From contig CAWJBB010000042.1 in NCBI GenBank assembly GCA_963840855.1, forward strand, positions 1-20,133: DNA of 20,133 bases. The letters run 5' to 3'. This stretch comes from an uncultured delta proteobacterium (GTDB taxonomy: Bacteria; Desulfobacterota; Binatia; UBA9968). Made by a program: the position numbers and the translations under genes. The notes under the pieces were generated by a model. The model saw only the letters and a program-made list of their open reading frames with translations. It searched no databases and had not been told where the DNA came from. Shown here in pieces: positions 3,028 through 19,075 of this stretch (position 1 is its first letter; every line of letters starts with the position of its first letter).

Positions 3028-3101
3028 GCGCGGCTTTCTCTCGGTAGCGAAAAGCCAAATTTTATGTTTTATAGAAAGCTCGATCTCGCGTGGGATTCCG
3101 C

Positions 3102-5495
3102 ATGGCCAAAGCAAAACCTACCAGCCGCAAGCCGCTTCCGCATCTAACAATACTCGAAGACATCAGCACGCTCATCAGCCATTCCCACGATCTTCAGGAC
3201 ACCCTCGATAACATCGTCGCCATCGTCGCCGACCGCATGGGGACCGAGGTTTGTTCGATTTATATTTTCGACCAGCGCAGGAGTCGCCTCACCCTTTCCG
3301 CGACCATGGGACTGGATAAGGAATCGGTGGGAAAGGTCTCCATGGGTATCGGCGAAGGTATCACCGGCCTGGTTATCGAACGAATGAAACCCGTGATGGT
3401 TGAGGATACGCTGGCTCACCCTCGTTATAAGTATTTCCCAGAAACCCATGAAGAACATTTTCACTCATTCCTCGGCGTCCCGATCATTGAAAAGAAGACA
3501 CCCCTCGGAGTTTTGGTCGTACAGACCTCGCGGCGGCGCAAGTTCGCGGGCGACGAAATTCGCCTGTTGACGACGATCTCGGCCCAGGTAGCGAGCATCT
3601 TCGTTCAAGCGCGCCTCGCCGACTCGCTCAAGACCAAAGAACAAGAGCGCAAGGAATATCAAAAGCGCATGGTTGACGCCATGCGCAAGCTGCGCTCCTA
3701 CGAGCGCAAACGGCCAGAGAGAAGCCCAACCGCGCGTTGGCGCGGGCGTTTGATGGGCTTGGTAGCCTCCCCCGGCTTTGGCCGCGGCCGCGCTTATGTT
3801 TTGGAGCCGCGCATGGACCTGGGCGCCATTCCAGAGAAAAAAACCCGGAGACGCCAGCATGAAATCGAACGGTTTCGCGGCGCCGTAGAACGCGGCATCG
3901 AGCAGATCAATGTCGTAAAAAACCGCATGAGCACTCTCATCTCGAGGGAAGAGAGCGCTATCTTCGATGTCTACCGTCTAATCCTCGAAGATCCGGCGAT
4001 CATCCAGCAAATCGAAACCCATATCCGCAAAGAGGGCTTTACAGCGGAGTACGCCGTGCGGTTCGTGTTTGAACGCTATCTGGAGAATGTCGCGAAGATC
4101 AAAGACAGCTACCTGCGCGAACGCAAGACGGATATCAAAGATGCCGCGCAGCGGCTGCTGGAAAATCTTACGGGCGTGTCAGGACGGGAACTGGAAATAC
4201 CTGAGGACGCTGTCTTGGTGGCCGAAGACCTTTCCCCCGCCGACCTCAGCATGCTTGAAGGTGACCACTTCAAAGGAATCGTCTTGTCCACCGGAGGTGT
4301 TACCTCCCACGCGTCGATTTTGGCGAAGTCTTTCGAAATTCCCAGCGTCGTCGCCATCGACGGACTGATGGAAAAGATTCGCCAGGGAGACCAGTTGATC
4401 GTCGACGGCAACTCGGGGCTCGTTTATGTCAATCCCGGACATGAAGTAATTCGTGAATATGACCGGCTCGAAAGAGACTATGCCGATTTGAACCGCGAAC
4501 TGGAGGAATTGAAAGACTTGCCCGCGGAAACCCTCGACGGTCACCGCGTCTCGCTTTACGCCAACGTGGGACTCTTAAACGACGTGGCCTTCGCCCATCT
4601 CCACGGCGCCCAGGGCGTCGGTCTTTACCGCACAGAAATTCCATTTCTGGCGCACCGGGATTTTCCCAGTGAAGAGGAACAATACGCACTCTACAAGCGG
4701 GTCGTGGAAGGCATGGCCGGCAAGCCGGTGACGATTCGGACACTGGATATCGGCGCGGATAAATATCCGTCTTATATGCGCAGCACTGGGGTCGAGCCCA
4801 ATCCGTTTTTGGGCTGGCGCTCCATCCGCGTCTCCCTCGAAGTGGAAGAAATCTTCAAGACCCAATTGCGCGCGATTCTGCGCGTCGGTGACCTCGGCCG
4901 GGTGCGCATGCTCGTGCCGATGGTGTCGAGCCTCGAAGAGATCACGAAGGTGAAAGAACTGCTGGCGGAAACGAAAGACGACCTGGAGCGCGACGGCACA
5001 CCCTTTGATAGACACATGGAGCTGGGCGTAATGGTTGAAGTGCCTTCCGCTGTCCATCTAGCCGGCCGTTTTTTGCGTGAAGTCGATTTTCTGAGCATCG
5101 GCACCAACGACCTCATCCAGTACATCCTGGCGGTGGACAGGAGCAACCGCAAGGTGGCGAACCTGTACGAGCCGCTGCACCCGGCGGTGCTGGCGGCGCT
5201 TGCCACAACCATCGAAGCCGGCAAACGGGAAGGCAAACGGGTCGGCATGTGTGGCGAGATGGCCGGCGATCCGCTCTGTGCCCTGCTATTGCTCGGCATG
5301 GGACTCGAAGAGTTCAGCATGGGCGCCCTTTATATCCCGGTCATTAAGAAAGCGGTCCGTTCGATAACCTACCAGGCCGCCAAAGCCACCGCCCAAATCG
5401 TCCTCCAAATGGATACCGTCGGCGAGATCAAGAAGTACCTTTTTGATCAAATTCGCGCGCTGGACATGGTAGAACTAATTGAAATGTATCGCTAA
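3102..5495 (+). CDS. ptsP: GAF-domain phosphoenolpyruvate-protein phosphotransferase (enzyme I Ntr-type)
   Basis: N-terminal GAF domain (EVCSIY...GEGITGLV...HPRYKYFPET.EE.FHSFLGVPI), phospho-His motif GGVTSHASILAKS, GVGLYRTE, RTLDIGADK, EPNPFLGWRSIR, FLSIGTNDLIQY and catalytic GMCGEMAGDP. ATG 3102 preferred over GTG 3090. Confidence 0.95.
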   Translation: MAKAKPTSRKPLPHLTILEDISTLISHSHDLQDTLDNIVAIVADRMGTEVCSIYIFDQRRSRLTLSATMGLDKESVGKVSMGIGEGITGLVIERMKPVMVEDTLAHPRYKYFPETHEEHFHSFLGVPIIEKKTPLGVLVVQTSRRRKFAGDEIRLLTTISAQVASIFVQARLADSLKTKEQERKEYQKRMVDAMRKLRSYERKRPERSPTARWRGRLMGLVASPGFGRGRAYVLEPRMDLGAIPEKKTRRRQHEIERFRGAVERGIEQINVVKNRMSTLISREESAIFDVYRLILEDPAIIQQIETHIRKEGFTAEYAVRFVFERYLENVAKIKDSYLRERKTDIKDAAQRLLENLTGVSGRELEIPEDAVLVAEDLSPADLSMLEGDHFKGIVLSTGGVTSHASILAKSFEIPSVVAIDGLMEKIRQGDQLIVDGNSGLVYVNPGHEVIREYDRLERDYADLNRELEELKDLPAETLDGHRVSLYANVGLLNDVAFAHLHGAQGVGLYRTEIPFLAHRDFPSEEEQYALYKRVVEGMAGKPVTIRTLDIGADKYPSYMRSTGVEPNPFLGWRSIRVSLEVEEIFKTQLRAILRVGDLGRVRMLVPMVSSLEEITKVKELLAETKDDLERDGTPFDRHMELGVMVEVPSAVHLAGRFLREVDFLSIGTNDLIQYILAVDRSNRKVANLYEPLHPAVLAALATTIEAGKREGKRVGMCGEMAGDPLCALLLLGMGLEEFSMGALYIPVIKKAVRSITYQAAKATAQIVLQMDTVGEIKKYLFDQIRALDMVELIEMYR

Positions 5496-5539: not shown

Positions 5540-5568
5540 TTGACATCCAGCAGTGCAGGGGTTATGTT
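5540..5568 (+). promoter_or_regulatory. sigma70-type promoter of the boxB-like module
   Basis: Consensus TTGACA (5540-5545), 17 nt, TATGTT (5563-5568). A strong RBS AAAGGAGGT lies at 5596-5604 before ATG 5613. Confidence 0.8.
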
Positions 5569-5572
5569 AACA

Positions 5573-5590
5573 TTCGAACGCTCGTTCGAA
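5573..5590. promoter_or_regulatory. Palindromic operator over the predicted transcription start (TetR/PaaR-like)
   Basis: Perfect inverted repeat TTCGAACG-CT-CGTTCGAA. The core CGAACGCTCGTTCG (5575-5588) fits CNAACGNNCGTTNG, which I recall as the consensus for Thermus thermophilus PaaR. Confidence 0.7.
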
Positions 5591-5612
5591 GTTTGAAAGG
5601 AGGTCCGAAAAA

Positions 5613-6719
5613 ATGCTCAAAATTTCCACCTTCGATGACTGGATCGAATATTTTCATCAATGGCAAAAGGATATCGGCTACGACCCGGCGCTTCTCCACG
5701 ATCAAAAGTTCGAAACCAAGCTAGGCGAGCTCCATAGCTCGGAAATTGAGTTTGGCGATTTCAAAGGGCAGCCGAAATGGCAGCGTGTTGGCCAAATACC
5801 CAATCAATCGATCCGCGACGCGCTCATGAATCTGATCATCTATCAGGGCGACACCGAGTTCGCGTCGGTGGAACAGCAAAAAAACCTGCTCGACACTGCG
5901 CCGACGGAATACGATCGCAAGGCCCTAATCCGGGTGAACAGCGAAGAAATGCGTCACGGCTGGCAGATGTGCTACCTGCTGGTCAATTACTTCGGCGACT
6001 CGGGAAAGCTCGAAGCGCGAAAACTTTTGGAACGGCGCGCCTTCCGCGGCGACCGGCTCCTGGATTCTTTTAACGCGCCGGTAAACAACTGGCTCGACTT
6101 TTTCACCTACACCGAGTTCGTCGACCGCGATGGCAAGTATCAGTTGACGATGTTGAGCCATTCGTCCTTCGCGCCGTTGGCCGAAAGCGTCACGGCGATG
6201 CTGAAAGAAGAACACTTTCATATGTTCACCGGACATACCGGACTGACGCGAATCATGCGCGCCGGTAAAATTCCCATTCCCATTGTCCAGAAATATTTTA
6301 ACAAGTGGCTCTCCACCGCCTACGATTTATTCGGGACGGATCACTCTTCCTCGGCGCATTGGGCATATACGTGGGGGCTCAAAGGTCGCTACGACGAACA
6401 TGAAGCTACCGTGCCCGCTGAAAAGGACAAACTGAACGATCTTTCCCGCGGTCATTATATGAATGAATCCGCGAAACTCATCGAGCAACTGAACCAGTTG
6501 GTGCCGGAGGGCCAGGCCAAGCTCTATGCCCCGGATCTGAAGTTCAATCGTTCCATCGGCGAGCATATTGGCAAGACCTACAGCGTGACCGGCGAACTAT
6601 TGTCGCCCGAGGCTTACGCGAAACATGTCAAAGAGGCCCTGCCGACCCCGGAAGACGAGCAAGTGTTGGCCGAGATCATCAAGGGCAAAGAGTGGGTGCA
6701 GCAGACACAGCTCAACTAA
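5613..6719 (+). CDS. BoxB-like di-iron aryl-CoA epoxidase subunit (ferritin-like PaaA/PaaC/BoxB family), short form
   Basis: BoxB-type motifs QGDTEFASVEQQ, VNSEEMRHGW, LLERR, FVDRDGKYQL, FAPLA and MLKEEHFH. Candidate di-iron ligands are E82, E112, H115, D171, E200 and H203. Symbol withheld because the protein is much shorter than canonical BoxB and the substrate is not shown. Confidence 0.85.
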   Translation: MLKISTFDDWIEYFHQWQKDIGYDPALLHDQKFETKLGELHSSEIEFGDFKGQPKWQRVGQIPNQSIRDALMNLIIYQGDTEFASVEQQKNLLDTAPTEYDRKALIRVNSEEMRHGWQMCYLLVNYFGDSGKLEARKLLERRAFRGDRLLDSFNAPVNNWLDFFTYTEFVDRDGKYQLTMLSHSSFAPLAESVTAMLKEEHFHMFTGHTGLTRIMRAGKIPIPIVQKYFNKWLSTAYDLFGTDHSSSAHWAYTWGLKGRYDEHEATVPAEKDKLNDLSRGHYMNESAKLIEQLNQLVPEGQAKLYAPDLKFNRSIGEHIGKTYSVTGELLSPEAYAKHVKEALPTPEDEQVLAEIIKGKEWVQQTQLN

Positions 6720-6790
6720 ACGAGCTGTTTGATTAATTAACTGTTGCATCTCGATTCGTGCGCGAGTAAGTAGAATTTCAGGAGAGATTG

Positions 6791-7114
6791 GTGAAGCGAA
6801 TCTGTCTTGTGTGCCAAAATATCGATTGCAAGTCGCGTGGCTCCGAGCCGCTCACGGTTGAGCTGCAGAAGCGGGTCGAGGCCAAGGGTCTCGACGATGT
6901 CGAGGTCAAACCTTATATGTGTTTCGGCGCCTGCCAGGAAGGACCCAACATCGTGCTCTATCCGGAGAAAAGTTGGTACGCCAACGTGCAGGTGGCGGAT
7001 CTTGACGAGATCACCGAGCATCTGGCCGGCGGTCCCCATGTGCAGCGGCTTGACACCATCGACTCATCACTAAAAGAACTGATCTATCAGCTCCTCGACA
7101 CAGGAATTTTGTAA
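6791..7114 (+). CDS. Thioredoxin-like [2Fe-2S] ferredoxin (NuoE C-terminal domain-like)
   Basis: VCQNIDC...GS...MCFGACQEGPNIVLYPEKSWY gives the Cx4C...Cx3C-x2-GP pattern. AGGAG at 6780-6784 favours GTG 6791 (alternative TTG 6788). Confidence 0.88.
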   Translation: MKRICLVCQNIDCKSRGSEPLTVELQKRVEAKGLDDVEVKPYMCFGACQEGPNIVLYPEKSWYANVQVADLDEITEHLAGGPHVQRLDTIDSSLKELIYQLLDTGIL

Positions 7115-7117
7115 GCC

Positions 7118-8380
7118 GTGGAAGGTATCCTCTTCCCACATGGTGTTGCCGAAGGACGGGAAGGATTGACTCATTACCGTGCCCGCGGGGGTTATGAGGC
7201 TTTGGCCAAAGCCGTCAAGGCAATTCCTGAAGAAATCATAAGAGTCATTTCCGAGGCCGGTCTGCGCGGACGGGGCGGCGCGGGCTTTCCGGCGGGGAAG
7301 AAATGGCAATTGACCCGCGAAGCCGCCGAGCAGCCGCGCTATTTAGTGATGAACGGCGGCGAAGATGAGCCAGGCAGTAAAAAAGACCGGGTGCTCATGG
7401 AAAATCTGCCGCACCTTATCATCGAAGGCGTCGTACTCGCTTCCTTCGCCATCGGCGCCTCGAAAGCCTATCTCTACATCAACGCCAACTACGACGTCGC
7501 AGCCAAGAGCATAAATGACGCATTAGCGGAAGCAAAAGCCCAAGGCTACTGGGGCGCCAACGTTCTCCGATCGGAGTTTAGTCTCGACATCGAAATTATC
7601 GCCGCGCCGCATAATTACGTCGCCGGCGAGGATACAGCGGCCTTGGAAGTTATCGAAGGAAAAAAACCGTGGCCGAGGCAAAAGCCGCCTTTCCCTGTCA
7701 CAGTTGGCCTTTTCGGCAAGCCCACGGCCGTTAATAATGTCGAGACGCTGGCGAACATCGCCCCGATTCTCTTGAACGGCGCCGAGTGGTACCGCAAGTT
7801 CGGCACCGCGGGGAGCGCCGGCACGATGATCTTTTCGCTGAATGACGACGTCAATCGTCCGGGAGTTTACGAGTTGCCCTTTGGCACGCCGTTGCGTTAC
7901 TTGATCGAACAATGCGGCGGCGGCATGAAAGGCGGCAAGAAAATCAAAGCGATCATGCCCGCGGCGCCATCATCGGCTTTTCTGCCGCCGGAAAAACTCG
8001 ACACACCGCTCGATCACGACTCAATGCGCGACGCGGGTTCCGCGCTCGGCTGTGGGGTCGTTCGCTTGATCTCCGAAGACGCCTGCATTGTCGAAGAGGT
8101 TTTGAAAATCTCCGAGTTCTTTACCGCGGAATCTTGCGGCCAGTGCCCCGCCTGCCGTATGGAAACCAATACTCTCACGATGCTGCTGAAAAAGGCGCAG
8201 CAAGGCCAGGGTGGCCAAGCCGTACTGGAACAGTGCGGCAAGGTACTTGCCTTTAACAAAGGCAAAGGGTTTTGCAATCTGATCGCCATGCCCGGCCCGC
8301 CCATCGAAAGCGCCCTTAAACTCTTTCCAGGCGATTTCGAGGCCCATCTCACCACCGGCAAGTGCCCGGCGGCGAACTAA
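7118..8380 (+). CDS. Stand-alone NuoF-like NAD(P)H:FMN oxidoreductase (complex I 51 kDa family) with [4Fe-4S] site
   Basis: GLRGRGGAGFPAGKKW, EPGSKKDR, PRQKPPFP...GLFGKPT.VNNVETL, an SLBB-like VNRPGVYELPFGTPLR.LI segment and ESCGQCPACR...GFC. Its GTG start follows the ferredoxin stop after 3 nt. No other nuo genes are adjacent. Confidence 0.9.
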   Translation: MEGILFPHGVAEGREGLTHYRARGGYEALAKAVKAIPEEIIRVISEAGLRGRGGAGFPAGKKWQLTREAAEQPRYLVMNGGEDEPGSKKDRVLMENLPHLIIEGVVLASFAIGASKAYLYINANYDVAAKSINDALAEAKAQGYWGANVLRSEFSLDIEIIAAPHNYVAGEDTAALEVIEGKKPWPRQKPPFPVTVGLFGKPTAVNNVETLANIAPILLNGAEWYRKFGTAGSAGTMIFSLNDDVNRPGVYELPFGTPLRYLIEQCGGGMKGGKKIKAIMPAAPSSAFLPPEKLDTPLDHDSMRDAGSALGCGVVRLISEDACIVEEVLKISEFFTAESCGQCPACRMETNTLTMLLKKAQQGQGGQAVLEQCGKVLAFNKGKGFCNLIAMPGPPIESALKLFPGDFEAHLTTGKCPAAN

Positions 8381-8396
8381 CTAACATTCGCAGCTC

Positions 8397-8503
8397 CGTT
8401 CAAGGTTCAAAAGTTCAAAGTTCAAGGTTTACGAGAGGTTCCGGATCAACTCCAATGCATTTTCCGGATTCAACGTTGAACATTGAACGTTGAACCTTGA
8501 ACG
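8397..8503. repeat. 107-bp palindromic element built from heptamer repeats
   Basis: Left arm has four NGTTCAA units (8397-8425) and right arm has four TTGAACN units (8476-8503). The outer 14 bp are a perfect inverted repeat (CGTTCAAGGTTCAA / TTGAACCTTGAACG). The interior has two TCCGGA palindromes. Confidence 0.8.
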
Positions 8504-8519
8504 TATCCCTCCCAATAGC

Positions 8520-8549
8520 TTGACGGTTTGAATTCCCACTTGGTAGTAT
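8520..8549 (+). promoter_or_regulatory. Putative sigma70-type promoter for the downstream catabolic array
   Basis: TTGACG (8520-8525), 18 nt, TAGTAT (8544-8549), with an extended -10 TG at 8541-8542. Confidence 0.6.
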
Positions 8550-8601
8550 CCCCATCGAGTCCCGCAGATTCGTTGCTCGTGTTCGTGGTTCGATGGGCGA
8601 G

Positions 8602-8700: not shown

Positions 8701-9528
8701 ATGAGACTTTCACCCATCAAGTGGCCCAACGATGCCAAAATTGCCGCAAGTTTCTTTGTCGCTTTTGAAGCCTTTGAAAAATATTCGCAGTATCGCCAAG
8801 GCGGCGACAAACCGGACTATGCATCTCTCGCCTATGGCGAATACGGCGGCAAAGCCGGCATCTGGCGCATCATGGATGTATTGGCGCGCAACGGCGTTAA
8901 AGGGACCATTGATACCAACGGCCGCGTCGCCGAAGACTTTCCCGATGCTTTGAAAGAGCTGCACGCCGGCGGTCATGAGATCGTCGGTCACGGATGGGTC
9001 AATGACACAGCCCTAAGCTCACTGGACGCTGCAAAGGAAAAAGAGCTCATCAAGCGAACTCTCGACGCCCTGGCGGCCGTGACGGGCAAACGCCCCGTCG
9101 GCTGGGTCAGCCCCGGGCATCGAATCAACGATTATACGTTAGGAAATTTCGTTGACGAAGGAATATTCTGGACCGGCGATTTGCCGGGACCCGATGTGCC
9201 GCAGCATCGCATGGTCAATGGCAAACCGTTGGTCATCATGCCGCGGCTCGATTACGCCAACGATCTTTCGCTAATCTTTAACGCGAAAAATCCCGCGCGG
9301 GTTTACTTTGAGAGCTTCAAGGCCGCTTTCGACTGTCTCTACGCCGAGGGCCAAGCCGGCTCGCCGAAACTCATCGATTGTCTCGTGCACGCGCATATCG
9401 GCGGCAGGCCGAACATCATCGGGGTCTTCGAGGAATGCATCCGTTACGCCAAAGGCTTTCCCAACGTATGGTTCTCTACCAAAGGGGAAATCGCCAGATG
9501 GTACTTGGACAACTACGCGCGGAAATAG
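8701..9528 (+). CDS. Polysaccharide deacetylase-fold hydrolase, PuuE/allantoinase-like branch
   Basis: WPNDAKIA, YGEYGGKAGIWRI, GHEIVGHGW, GKRPVGWVSPG, AAFDCLYAEG, VHAHIGGRP, VWF.T.GEIARW. RBS GGGAG upstream. Confidence 0.85.
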   Translation: MRLSPIKWPNDAKIAASFFVAFEAFEKYSQYRQGGDKPDYASLAYGEYGGKAGIWRIMDVLARNGVKGTIDTNGRVAEDFPDALKELHAGGHEIVGHGWVNDTALSSLDAAKEKELIKRTLDALAAVTGKRPVGWVSPGHRINDYTLGNFVDEGIFWTGDLPGPDVPQHRMVNGKPLVIMPRLDYANDLSLIFNAKNPARVYFESFKAAFDCLYAEGQAGSPKLIDCLVHAHIGGRPNIIGVFEECIRYAKGFPNVWFSTKGEIARWYLDNYARK

Positions 9529-9543
9529 CCTTGTGAGGTGTTC

Positions 9544-10725
9544 ATGACGATTAACAGCCACGCGGTTGAAAAATATCTTTCAGAACTGAATTCGCGGGAG
9601 CTACTACTCAAGCTCACCTGGGAGGAATGGCTGGCTCTCACAGAGCCCTACGCCAACGGTGACTTCTCGAGCGCCGATGTAACCGCGCGCTACCGCCGCA
9701 ACGGCTACGAATGGGACATGCATGGCACGCTCTACACGCCGGCAAACGAAGTCAATGCCAATCGCGCCTTCGTGTGTTTTCACGGCGGCGCCGGCAGCGA
9801 GAAAATCATGGACCTCACGCCGGATGGCCGGCCCGGCTTGGCTCGCGCGCTCGCCGCTCAAGGCTTCAAAGTCCTGGCGCTTACTTATCCCGGCCACTAT
9901 CCACCGGGCGGCCTGTGGAAAACTCCCATACCCGAGCGCCAGCCGATTTATCTGATGGATCGCGAATTGCCTCAACAAGAAATCCACGATCGCAATCTCA
10001 AGTGCACTTTCAACGTCATACTACAGGGCGCGGGTTCGCTCGCCGACGAACATTTAGCCGGCAGAGAAATAATCGGCTTTGGTCATTCCACCGGCGGGCC
10101 CATGGCCGCGCATCTCACCCGCTTTTCCAAGAATACCAAAGTGATCGGCCTGGTGGGCTTTGGCAGCGGCGGCCCGGATGGCTGGCGTCTGGAGTGGCGC
10201 AATAAGACCGGCGCGGAAAAATACTCCGAAAAGCCGGTGGATCATGTGTCGCGCCGCTCGCCGGACAGTTTCAAGGAATCCGGCTACGTCGATCCCGAAG
10301 ATCTCACCCCCTGGGGCGGCGCGGACGAGTACATCCGGCTGGTAAGCCCGCTGCGCTCGCAGATGAAGACCAGCCTCTGCGACAACCAACACAACGCCGC
10401 TTTGGGTATTCTTGAAGAATATCCGAAGCGCACCGGACTCCCGCGCGAAGAATATTTCGATCACTTGCAGGAACTGGACGGCAATTGGCTGAAGTCGATC
10501 AAAGTTTTGCTCACCGTCGGCGAAAACGACAAGGGTCACTGGGTGCGCGGCGACCGTTTGGAGGACAAACGCGAGATGTTCATGGGAGCCAAGTACGCCG
10601 CCACTACGAGAGGCGCGCATGTCGTTCTCATTCCACGCTACGGCCATGTGGGCTACGCGGAACTTTACAATGAAAAGATCGCCTACCTGTGGCTGTGGGC
10701 GCACAAAGCGGGCTATTTCGATTGA
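9544..10725 (+). CDS. Alpha/beta-hydrolase fold protein of unknown substrate
   Basis: Oxyanion loop FHGGAG, YPGH, nucleophile elbow GHSTGG, acid motif VGEND and C-terminal YGHVG. GAGGTG at 9535-9540 favours ATG 9544. Confidence 0.72.
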   Translation: MTINSHAVEKYLSELNSRELLLKLTWEEWLALTEPYANGDFSSADVTARYRRNGYEWDMHGTLYTPANEVNANRAFVCFHGGAGSEKIMDLTPDGRPGLARALAAQGFKVLALTYPGHYPPGGLWKTPIPERQPIYLMDRELPQQEIHDRNLKCTFNVILQGAGSLADEHLAGREIIGFGHSTGGPMAAHLTRFSKNTKVIGLVGFGSGGPDGWRLEWRNKTGAEKYSEKPVDHVSRRSPDSFKESGYVDPEDLTPWGGADEYIRLVSPLRSQMKTSLCDNQHNAALGILEEYPKRTGLPREEYFDHLQELDGNWLKSIKVLLTVGENDKGHWVRGDRLEDKREMFMGAKYAATTRGAHVVLIPRYGHVGYAELYNEKIAYLWLWAHKAGYFD

Positions 10726-10755: not shown

Positions 10756-11838
10756 ATGATATCCAGAATTTCTCACGGTGTGATCATTGTGCTGATTTTC
10801 TTGTGTCTCTCTTTGCAGGTTTCTCTATCCCACGGCGCGCAAGCGAAGCCCATGTCTGCGGCGGAACTTGCGCTGTACAAAGGAACGGACCGCGAGAAAA
10901 TCCTCATCGAGGGCGCCAAGAAGGAAGGCCAGGTCGTCTTTTACACATCGAACACCTGGGTCGCCGGCCCGATGTCGCAAGAATTTGAAAAGAAATATCC
11001 CTTCGTCAAAGCCAACGTCTGGCGCAGCGATTCGAAGGCACTGCTGAAGCGCCTCACCGAAGAAGTCACCGCTGCTCGCTACATCGCCGACGTCGTCGAA
11101 ACCAGCCCGGAATATATGTCGATTTTGTTGCGCGAAAAGATGCTTCAAGAGTATCTTTCCCCGGAGCTAAGCGCGTACGATGACGACGCAAAGATAAAAG
11201 GAAAAACCGGCGTCTTCGGCTGGACGAATCGGGAGATCTACATCAGCCTCGGATTTAATTCCAAGCTCATACCTGCGGCGGAAGCGCCCAAAAACATCAA
11301 GGACTATCTCGATCCCAAGTGGAAAGGCAAGATGTCCATCGCTGGTACCACCACCGGCGTCCAGTGGGTAGGCGCTCTTCTTGATCTGATGGGCCGTGAA
11401 TTTATGGAAAAGCTAAGCGCTCAGGAGATCAACATTCAGAATATCTCCGGAGCGGCTTTGGCAGGCCTGGTCGCGTCGGGAGAAGTGCCCCTATCGCCGA
11501 CGATCTTCAATTCCAACATCTTTACCCATAAGCAAAAAGGCGCTCCAGTGGAATGGCGACCGCTAGACCCCGTGATTGCCGGCGTCGGCACCTCAGGAAT
11601 GGTGCTCAACGCGCCCCATCCGCATGCCGCGCTATTGTTTCTCGACTATCTCCACTCAAAACTCGGCCAGGAGGTCGCCATGAAAGGCGGCCTCAGCTCG
11701 CCACGCAACGATATTGGTTCGCTGGAGCAAAAGTTCAAAAAACTCTACATCGAAAGTAAATACACGCCGGAGGAGTTCGAAAACAAGATCAACGAATGGG
11801 AAGCATTGATGCGCAAGCTCTTTATTCGCAAGCGCTGA
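10756..11838 (+). CDS. Extracellular solute-binding protein (AfuA/FbpA-like ABC family)
   Basis: Signal peptide, GAKKEGQVVFYTS, FEKKYP, DPKWKGK, KGAPVEW and APHPHAALLFLDYLHS..GQ. RBS GGAGG upstream. Confidence 0.88.
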   Translation: MISRISHGVIIVLIFLCLSLQVSLSHGAQAKPMSAAELALYKGTDREKILIEGAKKEGQVVFYTSNTWVAGPMSQEFEKKYPFVKANVWRSDSKALLKRLTEEVTAARYIADVVETSPEYMSILLREKMLQEYLSPELSAYDDDAKIKGKTGVFGWTNREIYISLGFNSKLIPAAEAPKNIKDYLDPKWKGKMSIAGTTTGVQWVGALLDLMGREFMEKLSAQEINIQNISGAALAGLVASGEVPLSPTIFNSNIFTHKQKGAPVEWRPLDPVIAGVGTSGMVLNAPHPHAALLFLDYLHSKLGQEVAMKGGLSSPRNDIGSLEQKFKKLYIESKYTPEEFENKINEWEALMRKLFIRKR

Positions 11839-11985
11839 ATGTTCTGCCGCCATGCCCGCGGTAAAAATCGGCTTGGAGTTTCGCGTCCCGGTTTGTCTAA
11901 ATTCGCGTCTCGGGAGTCTTGGGTCTCGGGTCTTCTTCCCGGACCGCAGTCCCTTGAGCCGTTTTGTATTCGAATGAGGTGAGCT

Positions 11986-13314
11986 ATGGCTAAAAAGATC
12001 ATTGATCAACTCGTAGAATATATGCTGTCGGCTCGAGACCTGCCTTTACCCGGCGAAGTCGTTGAAAGGGCGAAAAATCATCTCTTGGATACTTTGGCTG
12101 CCATTGTATCGGGTTCACAGCTCCGGCCCGGGCAATTGGGAATCCAATTCGCCCGCTCCCAGGGTGGAATTCAGGAAGCGGCGGTCTTCGGTTCGAACCT
12201 GCTGACGTCAGCGATTTGGGCAGCCTTCGCCAACGGCATTTCGGCCCATGCCGATGAGAGCGATGACTCCAACGATCGTCTCCATCCAGGCTGCTCTGTC
12301 GTTCCGGCTGCCTGGGCGATGGCGGAGCGCGAAAAGAAACCCGGTAAAGCTTTACTCAACGCCGTGGTCCTCGGCTATGACATTGCCTCGCGTTTCAACA
12401 AAGCTCTAATGACAAAGTCTACGAGCGTGGCGGGAACATTCGGCGCGGCGGCCGCCGCGGGAAGCCTGCTTGCTCTCGATGCTAAAAAGACCTGCTACCT
12501 TCTCTCGTACGCCGCGCAACAGGCATCCGGCTCAAACGCCTGGATTGGCGATGACGAACATATCGAGAAAGCATTTGATTTCGGCGGCATCAGCGGACGC
12601 AATGGCGTGACCGCGGCTCTCTTGGTCCAGGCGGGATTCACCGGCAACGCCGATGTGTTCGAAGGAGACCGCAACTTTCTCGACGAGCAATCGCCGCCGC
12701 CTGAAAAGAATGAGCTCGTAAGCGAACTGGGAACGCGCTATGAAATCACCCGCGGCTTGATAAAAAAATTTCCCACCGGCGCGCCTATGCAGGAGGCCGT
12801 CGAGGCGATGGTGCGTCTCATTGACCGGCATGGCATCAAGGCCTCGGACGTCGCCAAGGTCGTCGTTCGCCTGCCTGAAAGAGGCGCGCGGACCGTCAAC
12901 AATCGCCACATGCCCGATGTCAATGTTCAATATATTATGTCCGTCGCGTTGCTCGACGGCAAATTGAGCTTCGAAGCGGCCCATGATTATGCCCGGATGC
13001 AAGACAAGAACGTGCTCGATCTCAGAGCCCGCGTCGAACTCGTGGCCGATGAAGAAATGACCCGATCAGCGCGTCGCTACCAGGCTTCGGTTGAAGTGAT
13101 TCTGTCTCAAGGGCAGCGCTTCGAGGAACATGTGATCGACGTGCGCGGGCGGCCGCAAAATCCCATGACAGCGGCCGAGGTCGAAAACAAGGCGCGTGAG
13201 CTTATGACGCCGGTGCTCGGCACTGCGCGCGTGAACCGGTTATTTGATGCCATAAGAAACCTGGAATCGGTGGCCGACATTGGCGAGTTCCGCCCGCTGC
13301 TGATCAAGTCATGA
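11986..13314 (+). CDS. MmgE/PrpD family protein
   Basis: HLLDTLAAIVSG, AAFANGISAHADESDD...HPG.SVVPAA, GYDI, GVTAALL...GFTG and C-terminal RGRPQNPMT..EVENK. RBS GAGGTG upstream. Confidence 0.9.
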   Translation: MAKKIIDQLVEYMLSARDLPLPGEVVERAKNHLLDTLAAIVSGSQLRPGQLGIQFARSQGGIQEAAVFGSNLLTSAIWAAFANGISAHADESDDSNDRLHPGCSVVPAAWAMAEREKKPGKALLNAVVLGYDIASRFNKALMTKSTSVAGTFGAAAAAGSLLALDAKKTCYLLSYAAQQASGSNAWIGDDEHIEKAFDFGGISGRNGVTAALLVQAGFTGNADVFEGDRNFLDEQSPPPEKNELVSELGTRYEITRGLIKKFPTGAPMQEAVEAMVRLIDRHGIKASDVAKVVVRLPERGARTVNNRHMPDVNVQYIMSVALLDGKLSFEAAHDYARMQDKNVLDLRARVELVADEEMTRSARRYQASVEVILSQGQRFEEHVIDVRGRPQNPMTAAEVENKARELMTPVLGTARVNRLFDAIRNLESVADIGEFRPLLIKS

Positions 13315-13455
13315 GGTCGCGCTGAGTAATGTGGATGGCAACCGGAGCCCCTTTCGCTGATTTTCTTGGAGCGGCGCGCTGATCTCGTCCGGTCGAATTC
13401 GAAATTCTTATATTCGAAATTTAACCCCGGCACTTTGAGGCCCCTCGAGTAATTG

Positions 13456-14481
13456 ATGAAAAAAGATATTTTTAAGACCATTATTTTCGTTCTCGTGTTG
13501 CTCGCTCACCGGTTCGATGCCGCGCAAGCAGCGCAAGGGCCCGCTAAACCAGCGCCGGCAAAAGTCCGCATAAGCCAATCGGCGGTGGCCGCGCGCTCAA
13601 CGGTTCTATGGATTGCCCAGGAAAAGGGTCTCTTTGCCAAGCACGGCGTTGACATGGAGGTGGTTTATTTGCGCAGCAGCCCGCTGCAGATGACCGCGCT
13701 CTCGACCGGAGAGGTTCAATTTGCCGCCAGTGGCGGCTCGCCGTTCTTGTTCGCCGTTTCCGGCGGGCAGGATCTCAAGATCATTGCCGGCCAGGGCAAC
13801 CGGCTTTACTATCACCTCGTCGTGCGTCCGGAAATCAAGGAAGCGAAGGATCTGCGCGGCAAACGCTTCGGCGTCACTAACATCGGCGGCACCACGTGGA
13901 TGGCGACCTATTTAACACTCGAGCATCTGGGATTGGATGCCACCCGCGATCGCATCAGCATCAATGGTCTCGGCAATCAGACCATTCTCGCCCAGGCGGT
14001 CGAGGCGGGAAATATCGACGCGACACTGCTCGATCCCTTTCTGAGCCGCGGCCCCAAATCAAAAGGACTAACCGTGCTCGTTGATCTCTATCGCGCGAAG
14101 ATTCCATTCATGAGCGGCACGGTCGCTGTCAGCGGCAACTACCTGCGTGAGCATCCCGAAGTTGTCGAGGCGGTGTTGAAAGCGTTGATCGAAGCGCAAG
14201 CATTCGTCGCCGCGCCGGCTAACCGCAGCGCAGTTCTCCAAACCATGTCGCGCCACATGAAGCTGAGCAATCCGGCTTTGTTGGAGGATGGCTACCAGGA
14301 CTTGCAGGTGGGCGTTGAGAAAAAACCCTATGCTCAGGTGGACGGTCTGCGCAACATTCAGCGCATGATGGCGACTCTGAACCCCAAGGTTAAGAGCATT
14401 CGAGTTGAAGATCTTATCGATAATCGTTTTATCCGCAAACTCGATGAGAGCGGTTATATCGACAGCTTGTATAAAGAATGA
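13456..14481 (+). CDS. ABC solute-binding protein, NitT/TauT (SsuA/THI5-like) family
   Basis: Signal peptide, WIAQEKGLFAKHGVD.E, DLRGKRFGV, GNIDA and C-terminal IDNRFIRKLDESGYIDSLY. Confidence 0.88.
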   Translation: MKKDIFKTIIFVLVLLAHRFDAAQAAQGPAKPAPAKVRISQSAVAARSTVLWIAQEKGLFAKHGVDMEVVYLRSSPLQMTALSTGEVQFAASGGSPFLFAVSGGQDLKIIAGQGNRLYYHLVVRPEIKEAKDLRGKRFGVTNIGGTTWMATYLTLEHLGLDATRDRISINGLGNQTILAQAVEAGNIDATLLDPFLSRGPKSKGLTVLVDLYRAKIPFMSGTVAVSGNYLREHPEVVEAVLKALIEAQAFVAAPANRSAVLQTMSRHMKLSNPALLEDGYQDLQVGVEKKPYAQVDGLRNIQRMMATLNPKVKSIRVEDLIDNRFIRKLDESGYIDSLYKE

Positions 14482-14516
14482 TCCCGTCGCCACCGCGCAT
14501 GAATTCGAGGTCAATA

Positions 14517-15848
14517 ATGAACGACACTCTTCACCCCTCAATTCTCGATCTTTCCCGTAAGATTGCGGGTTTCAGCCACGGTTTTCGTTTAGAGCAAGCG
14601 CCGGCATCCGTCGTGGCGAATGCCAAGCTGGCGATCTTGGACTGTCTTGGTGTCGCCGTCTTAGCCGGGACACAGGAAATCGGCGACTGTCTGCGCAGGT
14701 TTGCTCGGGCCAATGTCGCGTCGGGTAATTGTACGGTCTGGGGCATGGAGATCCAAAGCAATGCCCGGGACGCCGCCCTGTTAAACGGCACACTGGCGCA
14801 TGGACTCGATTATGACGACCGCAATCATTCGACGACCTACACGCTGGCGTCGTCGATCGCGTTGACTGAAGACGCCAACGCCGGCGGCCGTGAAGCCTTG
14901 GAAGCTTTTATCGTCGGACGTGAAGTAAGGGCAAGTCTCGATAGCATTTTTTCCCATCGTGGCAGCGGTATCGGCCCTGGAGCACGCGGCTGGCATTCTA
15001 ACGGTATTCTCGGTCCCATCGCGGCGGCGTGCTGCGCCAGTAAAGTGCTCAAGCTCGATGCGAAACAGACTTTAGCTGCCCTCGGGCTCGCGGCGGGATC
15101 CTGCGGCGCGCTCACCCGCGACGGCGGCACCATGGCAAAGCCATTTCGTTGCGGCCATGCGGCGGCGACAGGCGTAACATCAGCGCTGCTGGCGCGAGAA
15201 GGATTCACCAGCGATGAGACCGCCCTGGAGGAGCGCTACGGGCTTTTGGAAGCCGTAGGTCCTCTGAGCGAACAAATTCTCGCATCCCTGGGGAAAGACC
15301 TTGGCGCGGTTTGGGATCTAGGCCACAGCCTCAGAATCAAGCCCTTTGCCTCCTGCACCGCGACGCACTCCGGCCTCGAAGCGATGCTGCGCCTCGTGCA
15401 GCGTGACAAAATTGCTCCAGGTGACGTCGAAGCAATGGAGTGCGACCTGCGTCCCTATCCGCTGGTGCGCGCCAAACCCACGCGCGGTTATGAAGGAAGA
15501 TTCAGCATGCCTTTCTGTTTGGCGGTGGCATTAGTGTATGGCAAAGTCACGCCGGATGATTTTGTTGATGAACGGCTGCAAGAGCCGCGGATTCAAGAGT
15601 TGATCGGTCGCACCCGCCACCTGCCCAAGGAAGACGTTCTCACCGTAACTCTAAAGAACGGCAAAAAATTGTCGGAGCCTTTCCAACCGCCAACGAATCT
15701 TACGGAGCAGTCGCAAATCAGCGAAAAATTCGCCCAATCGGTGAGCCGGGTTTTTTCACCGGAACGGACACGGGCAATTGCCGATCATGTCATGCGTCTG
15801 GAAGAGCTACGGTCGGTCACGGAACTCACGAATTTATTAAGAACGTAA
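14517..15848 (+). CDS. MmgE/PrpD family protein (second paralog)
   Basis: ILDCLGVAVLA, AALLNGTLAHGLDYDD, RGWH..G.LG.IAAA, GTMAKPF..GHAA..GV.SALLA.EGFT, IKPFASC..TH and GRFSMPFCLA. GAGGT at 14507-14511 favours ATG 14517. The alternative is ATG 14478, overlapping the upstream stop. Confidence 0.9.
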   Translation: MNDTLHPSILDLSRKIAGFSHGFRLEQAPASVVANAKLAILDCLGVAVLAGTQEIGDCLRRFARANVASGNCTVWGMEIQSNARDAALLNGTLAHGLDYDDRNHSTTYTLASSIALTEDANAGGREALEAFIVGREVRASLDSIFSHRGSGIGPGARGWHSNGILGPIAAACCASKVLKLDAKQTLAALGLAAGSCGALTRDGGTMAKPFRCGHAAATGVTSALLAREGFTSDETALEERYGLLEAVGPLSEQILASLGKDLGAVWDLGHSLRIKPFASCTATHSGLEAMLRLVQRDKIAPGDVEAMECDLRPYPLVRAKPTRGYEGRFSMPFCLAVALVYGKVTPDDFVDERLQEPRIQELIGRTRHLPKEDVLTVTLKNGKKLSEPFQPPTNLTEQSQISEKFAQSVSRVFSPERTRAIADHVMRLEELRSVTELTNLLRT

Positions 15849-15897
15849 TTTATCCTTTGGCTTCTTTTCTGAGGAAGCTCTCTGAAGGAGGAAACCC

Positions 15898-16908
15898 ATG
15901 GTCTTGCGCGCAGGCCCGAAAAAACTCATTTTGCTATTTTTCGTTTTGCATCTCCCCATACTTTGTGCTGCGCTTTTCCAACCCACAAAAGTCTTTGCCA
16001 GCAACTGGTACGAGGCAGCTAAAAGCGAAAAGCAGGCGGTGTGGTACACCTCGCTCAATGTGGCGGACAACGAGAAGATAATAGCGGCGTTCACAAAAAA
16101 GTATCCCGGCGTCGACGTGAACGTCAATCGTCAAAGCGCCAACAGCGTCCTGCAAAAAGTCCTCACCGAGCGCCGCGCCGGCAAAGACGTTGCGGACGTT
16201 GTCCTGGTTGGAGCGGAGTATCTCGACCTGCTGCAGAACCGCGGCATTTTACAGAAATACAACTCGGCGGAGTGGAAGGCCGAAAAAGGGGATTTCTGGA
16301 CCGCGACCTACATGAGCGTTCACAGCATCGCCTACAACAAGAACCTCCTTGGCGCGGACATGGCGCCACGGCGCTACCAGGACCTGCTCCAGGAGCGCTG
16401 GCGCGGCAAGTTCGCCGTCAACTTGGGTAATCCGACGTGGATTTATTCCATGTTGGACTTTTTCGGCAAGGATAAAGGCTCGGACTTTCTAAAAAAGCTC
16501 GCCGCGCTGAACCCTCGCGCATACCGCGGCACCACCTTGCTCATGCAAAGTGTCATTGCCGGAGACGCAGAGATCGGCGTAGCGCTGAACCACGACGGCG
16601 TGATCGCCTTTATCAACAAAAAGGCGCCGGTAGCATTGTCGAATATTCAGGACCCCCTCTATGCGGATGTGCACGGCATTGGCATTTTGGGAAATGCGCA
16701 ACGTCCCAACGCGGCGCGGCTGCTGGTCGACTTTATTGTCTCCAAGGAGGGTCAAACCATCCTGGCCGAGCTGGACAAGACCACGGTGCGCGATGATGTG
16801 CCGACAAAGTATCAATTCGATCGCAAGACTCTTCGTGTCGTCGGCCCGGAGGCGCGCGCCAACGTCGAGGAGTACGACAAGATGATGGTGGCATTGTTTA
16901 CCAAATAG
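15898..16908 (+). CDS. Extracellular solute-binding protein (AfuA/FbpA-like ABC family)
   Basis: Signal-like N-terminus, YEAAKSE...WYTSLN, KKYPGV, DLLQERWRGK and PNAARLLVDFIVSKEGQ. RBS AAGGAGG upstream. Confidence 0.88.
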   Translation: MVLRAGPKKLILLFFVLHLPILCAALFQPTKVFASNWYEAAKSEKQAVWYTSLNVADNEKIIAAFTKKYPGVDVNVNRQSANSVLQKVLTERRAGKDVADVVLVGAEYLDLLQNRGILQKYNSAEWKAEKGDFWTATYMSVHSIAYNKNLLGADMAPRRYQDLLQERWRGKFAVNLGNPTWIYSMLDFFGKDKGSDFLKKLAALNPRAYRGTTLLMQSVIAGDAEIGVALNHDGVIAFINKKAPVALSNIQDPLYADVHGIGILGNAQRPNAARLLVDFIVSKEGQTILAELDKTTVRDDVPTKYQFDRKTLRVVGPEARANVEEYDKMMVALFTK

Positions 16909-16930
16909 CAGTGTTCGAAGGAGACGTGTC

Positions 16931-17932
16931 ATGAAGGATTGGAAAAACCGCGGCATCCGCGTTTTCGGCGCGGTCGCGCTGCTGATGCTTTTCTCCGCTG
17001 CGATAGCTTCCGGCGCCGCCTACGAAGAAGCGAAAAAGGAAGGCCAGGTGGTGCTTTACACTTCACTCAATGTGGAGGACTCGCAGCCGCTCGCCGAGGC
17101 CTTTTCCGCAAAGTATCCCGGCGTCAAAGTAGAAGTTAACCGGCAAGGGAGTTCGACCCTGGTCACCAAGATTCTGACGGAGCGCCGCGTGGGCAAAAGA
17201 GACAATGCCGATCTGGTTCTCACCGGCGCCGACTCCCTCGACTTGATGCTGATGGAAGTGCCGACCATCTTTCAGAAATACACCTCGCGGGAACGGCCGC
17301 CAGAGGAACGCGGACTTTACAGCGGTGTCTATTTCACGATCCAGACCATCGCGTACAATAACCGCGCGGTGACCGGAGCCGATATCCCGAGGCGTTATGC
17401 CGACTTACTGCGCGAGCGTTGGAAGGGCAAAGCGGCTATCAATCTCAACAACTACGGCTGGATCTATGCGATGTTGGATTTCTTCGGCGCCGAGAAAGGC
17501 ATGGATTTTTTACGCAAGTTCGCCGCCCACAACCCCAAGCCCGGACGGGGCACGACCTTGATGGTTCAGCAATGGTTGGGCGGCGGCGAGGTGGAATTGG
17601 CGTTGCCGCTCAATCACGACGGCATCAATAAATTCAGAGAAAAAGGCCTTCCCGTTGATTGGGCACGCCTCGAAGATCCGCTTTACGCCGATCTCCACAC
17701 CGTTGCGATATTGGGCATGGCGCGCAATCCCAACGCCGCCCGGCTGCTGGTGGATTTTATTTTGTCCAAAGAAGGACAGACACTGATGGCCAAGACCGGC
17801 AATTCGGTTATGCGCGACGACCTTTCCGTCAAGGACGATATCGATCGGAAGAAGCTCCGGTTCCTGTCGGCCCAAGCTCGCGCGGGCGCGGACAAGCACC
17901 AGAAGACTATGAACGAGCTGTACAGCAAATAA
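16931..17932 (+). CDS. Extracellular solute-binding protein (AfuA/FbpA-like), tandem paralog of 15898-16908
   Basis: Signal peptide, YEEAKKEGQVVLYTSLN, DLLRERWKGK and PNAARLLVDFILSKEGQ. RBS AAGGAG upstream. Confidence 0.88.
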   Translation: MKDWKNRGIRVFGAVALLMLFSAAIASGAAYEEAKKEGQVVLYTSLNVEDSQPLAEAFSAKYPGVKVEVNRQGSSTLVTKILTERRVGKRDNADLVLTGADSLDLMLMEVPTIFQKYTSRERPPEERGLYSGVYFTIQTIAYNNRAVTGADIPRRYADLLRERWKGKAAINLNNYGWIYAMLDFFGAEKGMDFLRKFAAHNPKPGRGTTLMVQQWLGGGEVELALPLNHDGINKFREKGLPVDWARLEDPLYADLHTVAILGMARNPNAARLLVDFILSKEGQTLMAKTGNSVMRDDLSVKDDIDRKKLRFLSAQARAGADKHQKTMNELYSK

Positions 17933-17980
17933 CCCAGCTTTTGCCCAGCAAGCGTGAAACCGCAGGAACAAGGAGGCGTA

Positions 17981-19024: not shown

Positions 19025-19075
19025 GCGCCGGGGACGTGCGACCACATATTATCCGCAGCTTCAGGGAGGGAGAAC

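Follow-up and report, generated by a model that had tools for sequence, protein, structure and literature searches.

The stretch of DNA analysed here (hereafter the window) is the whole of a 20,133-nucleotide contig, CAWJBB010000042.1 (C42), in a metagenome-type assembly of 7.1 Mb and 93 contigs from an uncultured delta proteobacterium. The genome is 94% complete with 8% contamination, and the nearest public relatives of the window are metagenome-assembled genomes (MAGs), mostly labelled Candidatus Binatia. On the forward strand lie three co-oriented genes, which we refer to as the triad and discuss as a candidate oxygenase with its own reductase. The first (5613-6719) encodes a short BoxB-family di-iron oxygenase of 368 amino acids, presumably an aryl-CoA epoxidase component; the second (6791-7114) a thioredoxin-like [2Fe-2S] ferredoxin of 107 amino acids; and the third (7118-8380) a stand-alone NuoF-like flavoprotein of 420 amino acids with a flavin mononucleotide (FMN)/NADH site and one [4Fe-4S] cluster, presumably the NAD(P)H-oxidising entry point. 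We placed the ferredoxin start at the GTG at 6791 because homologs begin MKR.CLVCQN and an AGGAGA sits 6 nucleotides upstream (the alternative start at 6788 gives 108 amino acids). With this start, both gaps of 71 and 3 nucleotides given in the initial annotation, an earlier reading of the sequence alone, were re-derived. The promoter/operator that it had placed before the triad and the large palindrome behind it were located as well: a sigma-70-like promoter on the forward strand (5540-5568; TTGACA-17 nucleotides-TATGTT, 10 of 12 matches in a consensus scan), an operator-like perfect palindrome, TTCGAACG-ct-CGTTCGAA, with the core CGAACGnnCGTTCG (5573-5590), and a long imperfect palindrome of GTTCAA/TTGAAC repeats (8410-8504), neither palindrome being assigned to a strand. 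The long palindrome lies between the operon and a promoter-like site of the next gene (8520-8549). Also in line with the initial annotation, the window, that is, the whole contig, holds no other nuo, hydrogenase, formate dehydrogenase, boxA or boxC gene.

The first protein of the triad is a member of the PaaA_PaaC family PF05138 (49.7 bits, cut-off 28.5) that stands closest to BoxB. Its match to the BoxB model TIGR03225 falls into three stretches and scores 240 bits (cut-off 499.1; 368 amino acids for a 471-position model), and the PaaA model TIGR02156 gives only 44.9 bits (cut-off 280). Despite the sub-cut-off score, source databases label these proteins "benzoyl-CoA 2,3-epoxidase subunit B" among the 120 matches listed from a family of ~5000 members. 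The closest solved relative is BoxB of Azoarcus evansii (3PER; phmmer, 182 bits), and our alignment to it runs in the numbering of the published structure and was checked against the ligand list in the available text of PMC5489048. In that text, the BoxB iron ligands are E120, E150, H153, D211, E240, and H243, and second-shell residues Q116, T119, S123, F193, F203, F206, and T210 orient benzoyl-CoA. The predicted full di-iron ligand set is indeed present, as E82, E112, H115, D171, E200, and H203, and the six ligands are kept in 33 of 33 locus-derived family members (alignment A1). The second shell is identical at five of seven positions (Q78, T81, S85, F153, and F163 for Q116, T119, S123, F193, and F203), and it is changed at the other two, where F206 of BoxB is Y166 and T210 is V170. 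Tyr166 and Val or Ile170 occur in all 33 members of the short family, whereas the BoxB-length representatives P0153, P0160, and P0163 retain Phe and Thr.

An AlphaFold2 model of the BoxB-like protein, built on 44 sequences, reached a mean predicted local distance difference test (pLDDT) score of 94.3. Its best Foldseek match is BoxB 3pm5_A (TMq 0.90, TMt 0.71, root-mean-square deviation 2.1), with SSO1313 (4MUD) and PaaA/PaaC far behind. When the BoxB-like protein (A1) and the ferredoxin (A2) were modelled as a complex, the scores of 0.14 and 0.11 stayed below the mark of 0.32, in a run without controls that speaks neither for nor against binding. In a quick tree of the BoxB-like family, the clade that contains the window (clade A, defined below) is supported (14 rows, SH-aLRT 98); because long branches meet, the tree does not place true BoxB with respect to the short family.

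The other two proteins resemble the NADH-oxidising module of complex I, and both were identified correctly in the initial annotation as a thioredoxin-like [2Fe-2S] protein and a NuoF-like FMN/[4Fe-4S] protein. The ferredoxin corresponds to the C-terminal core of NuoE and is without the NuoE N-terminal domain: it scores 28 bits against the thioredoxin-like 2Fe-2S family PF01257 (cut-off 24.8), covering profile positions 66-144 only, and 29.9 bits against the NuoE model TIGR01958, under its cut-off of 142.4. Cys9-x4-Cys14 and Cys45-x3-Cys49, in the spacing of NuoE, are invariant in 26 of 26 sequences, as is a C-terminal tail, IYQLLD.G. The NuoF-like protein matches PF01512 (145.6 bits) and PF10589 (57.3 bits), has an SLBB domain, and reaches 415.9 bits against the NuoF model TIGR01959, where the cut-off is 558.65. 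All 25 orthologs keep its GRGGAGFP loop (G51, G53, and G54) and C340, C343, C346, and C386 unchanged. HydB, NfnB, and NuoF/Nqo1 are the best solved relatives, at ~330-345 bits.

The suggestion that this NuoF is not the complex I subunit is borne out by the rest of the genome. A separate nuoD-nuoE(157 amino acids)-nuoF-nuoG operon lies on contig C10, with a NuoF that scores 627.7 bits and thus exceeds the cut-off, and on contig C67 a gene for a 574-amino-acid NuoE-NuoF fusion precedes Fe-S and molybdopterin-oxidoreductase genes, forming a set that resembles formate dehydrogenase. The NuoF-like gene of the triad lies outside any nuo operon, its neighbours being the BoxB-like gene, the 107-amino-acid ferredoxin gene and a polysaccharide-deacetylase-family gene. 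In a FastTree phylogeny of 23 sequences, printed without support values, the triad NuoF-like proteins and one acidobacterial ortholog group in one clade that excludes the complex I and fusion types.

The usual reductases of such oxygenases were not found. The best match to BoxA (TIGR03224) in the genome of the window is 31.7 bits against a cut-off of 459.2, and the model has no match at E<=1e-20 in any of 61 genomes of the order. PaaE (TIGR02160) is over its cut-off in none of 21 genomes, which gave two weak matches of ~110 bits. In these sets of genomes, boxA and paaE thus do not co-occur with the triad.

The linkage of the three genes is conserved. Our scan, limited to one genome per species, gave at least 589 relatives, from which 80 loci were kept: 28 at >=70% identity (clade A) and 52 at 59-64% (clade B), the latter mostly from Acidobacteriota. 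In clade A, the ferredoxin gene comes next after the BoxB-like gene in all 28 loci and the NuoF-like gene is present in 27, the contig of the remaining locus (L034) ending after the ferredoxin. In clade B, neither gene of the pair is present in 50 of 52 loci; one locus (L049) has the ferredoxin and another (L044) degraded pieces of both. We also sampled the order itself with 61 genomes from three families and 27 genera, which are kin rather than independent observations and of which two (G014 and G020) are unpublished. In 44 of them, 355-709 nucleotides separate the BoxB-like from the NuoF-like gene on the same strand, and in two more both genes are at contig ends. A further four have the BoxB-like gene alone, two of these copies abutting a contig end (ends were checked for these two only), and three genomes (83%, 95%, and 93% complete) carry none of the triad. 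The remaining eight, all of one genus, have the ferredoxin and NuoF-like pair without an adjacent BoxB-like gene. Four of these eight deletion genomes were fetched (L118-L121, from G054, G055, G064, and G062), and the pair is intact in all four. In L119 and L121 only the last ~50 codons of the oxygenase gene remain, and in L118 and L120 no trace of it was found at E<=1e-5. In L119 the operator persists ~200 nucleotides upstream of the ferredoxin gene. All eight genomes retain a ~60%-identical clade-B paralog elsewhere. One more arrangement is seen in G002, where the BoxB-like and ferredoxin genes are ~800 kb from the NuoF-like ortholog; a 111-amino-acid open reading frame (ORF) upstream of that ortholog (L091:1123-1458) was considered as a ferredoxin and rejected, as BLASTP gave no alignment to either ferredoxin.

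Beyond the triad, the neighbours of distant clade-A loci (Leu/Phe-tRNA protein transferase, glyoxalase-family, TctA/TctC, luciferase-like monooxygenase, and NUDIX genes) give no clue to a pathway. Five clade-A loci (L011, L013, L014, L018, and L020) share the same ptsP - triad - deacetylase - hydrolase synteny under NCBI labels from five phyla (Limnocylindrales, Syntrophobacter, Verrucomicrobiia, Udaeobacter, and Eisenbacteria), a spread that points to errors in the binning or labelling of MAG contigs rather than to wide transfer.

The sequence upstream of the triad is conserved in two elements. All 15 upstream regions aligned from related loci share the TTGA of the -35 hexamer and contain the operator palindrome, amid otherwise unconserved bases. 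With up to one mismatch to the 12-base core allowed, 27 of 28 clade-A loci have the operator within ~65 nucleotides of the start of the BoxB-like gene; L032, the exception, begins at a contig edge. In 18 acidobacterial clade-B loci, this motif is found within 200 nucleotides of the start of a TetR ORF, the TetR cluster having 19 members. In 1.10 Mb of loci it has 55 matches, compared to five in the reversed control. The core CGAACGnnCGTTCG of the palindrome fits the consensus CNAACGNNCGTTNG, which the available text of PMC6651687 and PMC9493321 gives for PaaR, the phenylacetyl-CoA-responsive TetR repressor of Thermus thermophilus. At 5575-5588, CGAACGCTCGTTCG agrees with every specified position of CNAACGNNCGTTNG, a sequence match that marks a putative operator. 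The 7.1-Mb genome has one exact copy of the operator, that of this operon, and none at one mismatch, and two further copies of the 12-base core are both inside ORFs. A regulon search in the same genome found none, with 54 two-mismatch copies against 60 in the reversed-sequence control. The acidobacterial TetR has the TetR-family entries 5K7F and 3VPR as its best solved relatives. Of these entries, 5K7F/5K7Z is AibR and 3VPR is PfmR, both acyl-CoA-responsive regulators. In the genome of the window, a candidate ortholog of this TetR (C78:7763-8482) is 38% identical to it. No operator was seen upstream of this gene, in a region that is broken by a run of ~95 A (C78:8535-8630, L126), probably an assembly or scaffolding artefact.

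Sequences from RNA libraries also cover the locus. Contigs from four metatranscriptome studies (sediment, ice, sediment, and soil) match it at >=90% identity and come from close relatives; 17 of the 24 runs listed are recorded as RNA. These contigs cover 20 to 27 of 30 bins. One contig of 1745 nucleotides (from run X3; 96% identical, 70 differences) spans 6540-8285 and thereby reaches from the 3' part of the BoxB-like gene across the ferredoxin gene into the NuoF-like gene, most of which it covers. Contig depth in X3 is 142-330 within the operon and 0-16 outside, falling from 142 to 16 to ~2 across 8342-8575, although the lack of cover in the flanks may stem from sequence divergence in the relatives and not from missing transcription. 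Contigs of X1 and X4 start at 5591 and 5594, beside adapter sequence, a weak hint of a transcript start. The long palindrome at 8410-8504 consists of repeated GTTCAA(A/G) units and their complement, and two X1 RNA-library contigs replace or skip its centre.

More can be said about possible substrates from the clade-B paralogs. In Acidobacteriota, the genes run in the order TetR, PaaF-like enoyl-CoA hydratase, Mug-type glycosylase, PaaG-like hydratase and BoxB-like gene, followed by CoA-transferase A/B or 3-hydroxyacyl-CoA dehydrogenase and sometimes an aldehyde dehydrogenase. The best model for the PaaG-like hydratase is PaaG (220 bits vs. 345), with an alternative oxepin-CoA hydrolase model next (208 vs. 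300). In 8 of the 52 clade-B loci, a three-subunit xanthine-oxidase-family enzyme follows that resembles 4-hydroxybenzoyl-CoA reductase (Hcr), an enzyme whose product is benzoyl-CoA. Its alpha subunit reaches 1042 bits against TIGR03194 in L045 (cut-off 994.55) and 978 in L057, and the beta and gamma subunits are below their cut-offs. XDH-family genes near L025 were examined as a further Hcr-like set and excluded, the alpha subunit being only 35% identical. The pockets of clades A and B are identical (Y166 and V/I170 in 33 of 33 locus-derived sequences), and the gene context of the paralogs thus plausibly bears on the window enzyme as well. A NuoF-like ortholog was found in one of five acidobacterial genomes with a paralog, and in none of 150 further sampled Acidobacteriota, six of which (one unpublished) carry the BoxB-like gene. 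Among the five paralog-carrying genomes, PaaA and PaaK are over their cut-offs in none and benzoate-CoA ligase in two.

Taken together, we consider it probable that the three proteins make up an O2-dependent oxygenase of aryl-CoA rings, which would draw on NAD(P)H through the NuoF-like protein and the NuoE-core ferredoxin; its most likely activity is the epoxidation of benzoyl-CoA or a close analogue. We only infer the electron flow, the substrate, the product and the regulator of the triad. NAD(P)H would reduce FMN on the NuoF-like protein, electrons would travel by way of its [4Fe-4S] cluster and then the ferredoxin's [2Fe-2S] cluster to the di-iron centre of the short BoxB-family protein, and there O2 would be activated and the ring of the CoA thioester oxygenated. 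The NuoE/NuoF-derived pair would in this way substitute for BoxA, the partner of BoxB, or for PaaE, the partner of PaaABC. A PaaR-like, acyl-CoA-responsive TetR repressor bound to the 5573-5590 palindrome probably holds expression off. As for the substrate, homology and the Hcr-like neighbours of the paralogs favour benzoyl-CoA; the PaaR-type operator and the PaaG/F-like genes suggest phenylacetyl-CoA; and the Tyr166/Val170 signature allows yet another compound. The proposal of the initial annotation, that a complex I diaphorase module was recruited as the reductase of an aryl-CoA epoxidase, is supported by three of the four tests set for it in advance, as linkage, the boxA/paaE searches and the identity of the NuoF all came out in its favour. 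It is qualified by the reductase-less paralogs and the eight deletion genomes.

Several observations weigh against the proposed oxygenase with a dedicated reductase. The BoxB-like protein scores under half of the BoxB cut-off (240 vs. 499.1) and misses ~100 BoxB residues, and the changes of F206 to Tyr and T210 to Val or Ile across the whole family imply that the substrate may not be benzoyl-CoA. BoxC (TIGR03222) was not found in the genome, where the best match is 75.6 bits vs. 712.3. The RNA-library contigs are compatible with DNA carry-over and fall short of demonstrating one common transcript. A clade-A copy is present in 50 of the 61 genomes, a near-universal distribution in the order that is unusual for a peripheral catabolic operon. 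The eight genomes that kept the pair after losing the oxygenase gene indicate that the pair is not strictly tied to that gene, and the clade-B paralogs evidently work without this reductase. The main uncertainties concern the substrate, how exclusive the pair is to the clade-A oxygenase, given the deletion genomes and the paralogs, and why a catabolic-looking operon should be near-universal in the order.

These points could be accommodated by other explanations. In one of them, the ferredoxin and the NuoF-like protein would act together as a general NADH:ferredoxin-type module that serves several acceptors (for example both BoxB-like paralogs or unrelated enzymes), with the clade-A oxygenase also using other donors. 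This would explain the pair that persists in 8 of 61 genomes after loss of the adjacent BoxB-like gene, with a ~60%-identical paralog elsewhere in each, the acidobacterial paralogs that have an identical pocket and no pair, and the separation of ~800 kb in G002. We regard it as unlikely, however, as the pair adjoins the BoxB-like gene in every sufficiently long clade-A locus, no other conserved neighbour was seen beside it, and L119 keeps the operator of the oxygenase promoter before its ferredoxin gene, so that the pair there stays in the same regulon. A different doubt concerns the chemistry. With the same electron chain, the enzyme might hydroxylate, desaturate or otherwise oxidise a CoA thioester that is neither benzoyl-CoA nor phenylacetyl-CoA, such as a substituted benzoyl-CoA or an alicyclic or aliphatic acyl-CoA. 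The family-wide Y166 and V/I170, at positions that line the benzoyl ring in BoxB, would fit such a substrate, and so would the missing BoxC, PaaK scores below the cut-off in the genome of the window and in all five acidobacterial paralog carriers, and a distribution in the order like that of a core gene. But five of seven ring-positioning residues and the thioester-binding Gln are the same as in BoxB, the operator is of the PaaR type, and the paralogs have PaaG-/PaaF-like hydratases and genes like those of 4-hydroxybenzoyl-CoA reductase as neighbours, which makes this option improbable to a similar degree. Finally, the triad might act on no organic substrate at all and serve as an NADH-driven scavenger of O2 or peroxide, comparable to rubrerythrin or a flavodiiron protein, as could be imagined for an operon that is near-universal in its order and stands alone among unrelated genes in the lineage of the window. 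The conserved substrate-channel residues of BoxB, including the thioester-binding Gln, the location of the paralogs within acyl-CoA gene clusters and the operator of the acyl-CoA-responsive TetR type upstream of the operon leave very little room for it.

The BoxAB benzoyl-CoA 2,3-epoxidase of Azoarcus evansii (3PER, 3PM5) is the known system nearest to the proposed aryl-CoA oxygenase. Both have the ferritin-like di-iron fold (TMq 0.90), the six ligands and five second-shell residues, and presumably belong to the same class of O2-dependent aryl-CoA oxygenases with an external two-electron donor. However, BoxB has ~475 amino acids rather than 368, with F206 and T210 in place of Tyr and Val or Ile, and its donor BoxA consists of an FNR-type domain and two [4Fe-4S] clusters, unlike the NuoE-core ferredoxin and NuoF-like flavoprotein found here; BoxA was found in none of the 61 related genomes and BoxC was not found in the genome itself. 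The phenylacetyl-CoA epoxidase PaaABC(D)E shares the family PF05138 and the PaaF-, PaaG-, and PaaH-like genes of the paralog clusters, and the operator core fits CNAACGNNCGTTNG of the Thermus thermophilus PaaR regulon. It differs in that the triad has a single oxygenase subunit, far nearer to BoxB than to PaaA, and no PaaB, PaaC, PaaD or PaaE partners. With the NuoE/NuoF modules of complex I, NAD-linked formate dehydrogenases and HydABC-type hydrogenases, the pair has in common the FMN/NADH domain, the SLBB domain, the four [4Fe-4S] cysteines and the C-x4-C...C-x3-C pattern. In contrast to those modules, there is no NuoG-like, hydrogenase, formate dehydrogenase or membrane-arm partner in the window, the partner gene being that of a di-iron oxygenase; the ferredoxin is without the N-terminal domain and has a new invariant C-terminal tail, and the NuoF-like protein falls short of the cut-off and groups in a clade apart. 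SSO1313 of Sulfolobus solfataricus (4MUD), the second-closest solved relative of the oxygenase (74.5 bits, Foldseek E 2e-9), has the same ferritin-like core, but with 235 amino acids it covers the core only (TMq 0.51), and its PDB title, 'ring oxidation complex / phenylacetic acid degradation-like protein', comes without a function. By curated cut-offs and context, the triad proteins therefore fall outside BoxB, PaaA, and NuoF, yet would resemble each of them in the way they work.

Known donors to di-iron oxygenases are FNR-type reductases, Rieske or plant-type ferredoxins, BoxA, and PaaE, and flavoproteins of the NuoF type are known to let electrons into or out of complex I, NAD-linked hydrogenases, formate dehydrogenases and bifurcating enzymes. 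The view that the combination was undescribed still stands, as a BoxB-like oxygenase with a NuoE/NuoF-type reductase was not found in the literature searched, which had subscription journals outside its scope. The available text of a 2026 survey of the paa pathway (PMC13186573) contains no BoxB, NuoF, Acidobacteria or Binatia terms. If our interpretation is true, this would be the first complex-I-type flavoprotein that supplies a di-iron oxygenase, and if the link holds, the known repertoire of both the di-iron oxygenase and the NuoF families grows. It would also offer a handle on the CoA-epoxide "hybrid" route of aromatic ring opening in abundant uncultured soil bacteria (Binatia-like lineages and Acidobacteriota). 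These bacteria are without the box/paa epoxidase marker genes, and surveys based on boxB/boxA or paaABCDE would hence miss or mislabel the route. We are evenly divided on a wider picture, in which a widespread and hitherto unrecognised family of short BoxB-type aryl-CoA epoxidases would replace BoxAB or PaaABCDE in uncultured soil and sediment lineages, as a core function in the Binatia-like order and patchily in Acidobacteriota, with one clade having captured a NuoE/NuoF module of complex I, hydrogenase or formate dehydrogenase origin as its dedicated NADH-dependent reductase, under the control of a PaaR-like, aryl-CoA-sensing repressor.

Pieces of a pathway that such an epoxidase could feed are scattered over the genome of the window, and we only infer that they have a role in it. 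Two genes of the benzoate-CoA ligase family are over the cut-off (on C55 with 793 bits and on C62 with 581 bits), and the best PaaK match (TIGR02155) is 234.7 bits vs. 646.3. On C72, a PaaK-family ligase adjoins HcrC/A/B-like genes, whose alpha subunit has 819 bits vs. 994.55, and on C50 an aldehyde dehydrogenase adjoins a hydratase 55% identical to the acidobacterial PaaF-like neighbour. Contig C40 has the gene order paaF-like, paaG-like (284 vs. 345 bits), paaH-like (in two ORFs) and pcaF/paaJ-like thiolase (543 vs. 605), and paaABCDE was not found with this cluster. The best PaaA match (TIGR02156) in the genome, 71.2 bits vs. 280, is a different protein of 309 amino acids on C27. As no canonical epoxidase is encoded to supply these scattered genes, the triad is left as the candidate. 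The paaF/G/H/J-like cluster has near-equal tblastn matches at C40:399.3-403.8 kb and C60:41.3-44.6 kb, which points either to duplication or to the 8% contamination or a mixture of strains, and its paaH-like gene is split over the ORFs L111:8962-9879 and 9866-10609. The alpha model of 4-hydroxybenzoyl-CoA reductase has 50 matches in the genome, ~35 of them near full length, reflecting a very large family of xanthine-oxidase/CO-dehydrogenase-type large subunits.

The triad is flanked in the window by ptsP (GAF-EI; 3090-5495) upstream and by a polysaccharide-deacetylase/PuuE-like gene (8701-9528) downstream. In clade-A loci, a PuuE-like polysaccharide-deacetylase gene and a hydrolase-like gene (~390 amino acids) are often found downstream of the triad, in the window at 8701-10725. 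A similar pair on C50 (L112:12736-14882), a PuuE-like protein of 313 amino acids and a 388-amino-acid ORF without a Pfam or NCBIfam match, is divergent from enoyl-CoA hydratase (ECH) and aldehyde dehydrogenase genes. The rest of the window (10756-20131), with solute-binding proteins, two MmgE/PrpD-family genes and two amidohydrolase_2 genes, may be a separate catabolic island.

The 309-amino-acid protein on C27 (C27:195499-196428, L113:5499-6428, reverse strand) is a second lone ferritin-like protein of the PaaA/PaaC family in this genome (PF05138, 66 bits; PaaA, 71 vs. 280). Its gene is directly upstream of those for electron-transfer flavoprotein (ETF) beta and ETF alpha (L113:3629-5377), so that here, too, a di-iron protein is unusually paired with an electron carrier. 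Most of the 61 related genomes contain weak matches to this protein (~27-33% identity over ~200 residues), possibly homologs, and in G013 a 68%-identical copy adjoins the clade-B BoxB-like gene.

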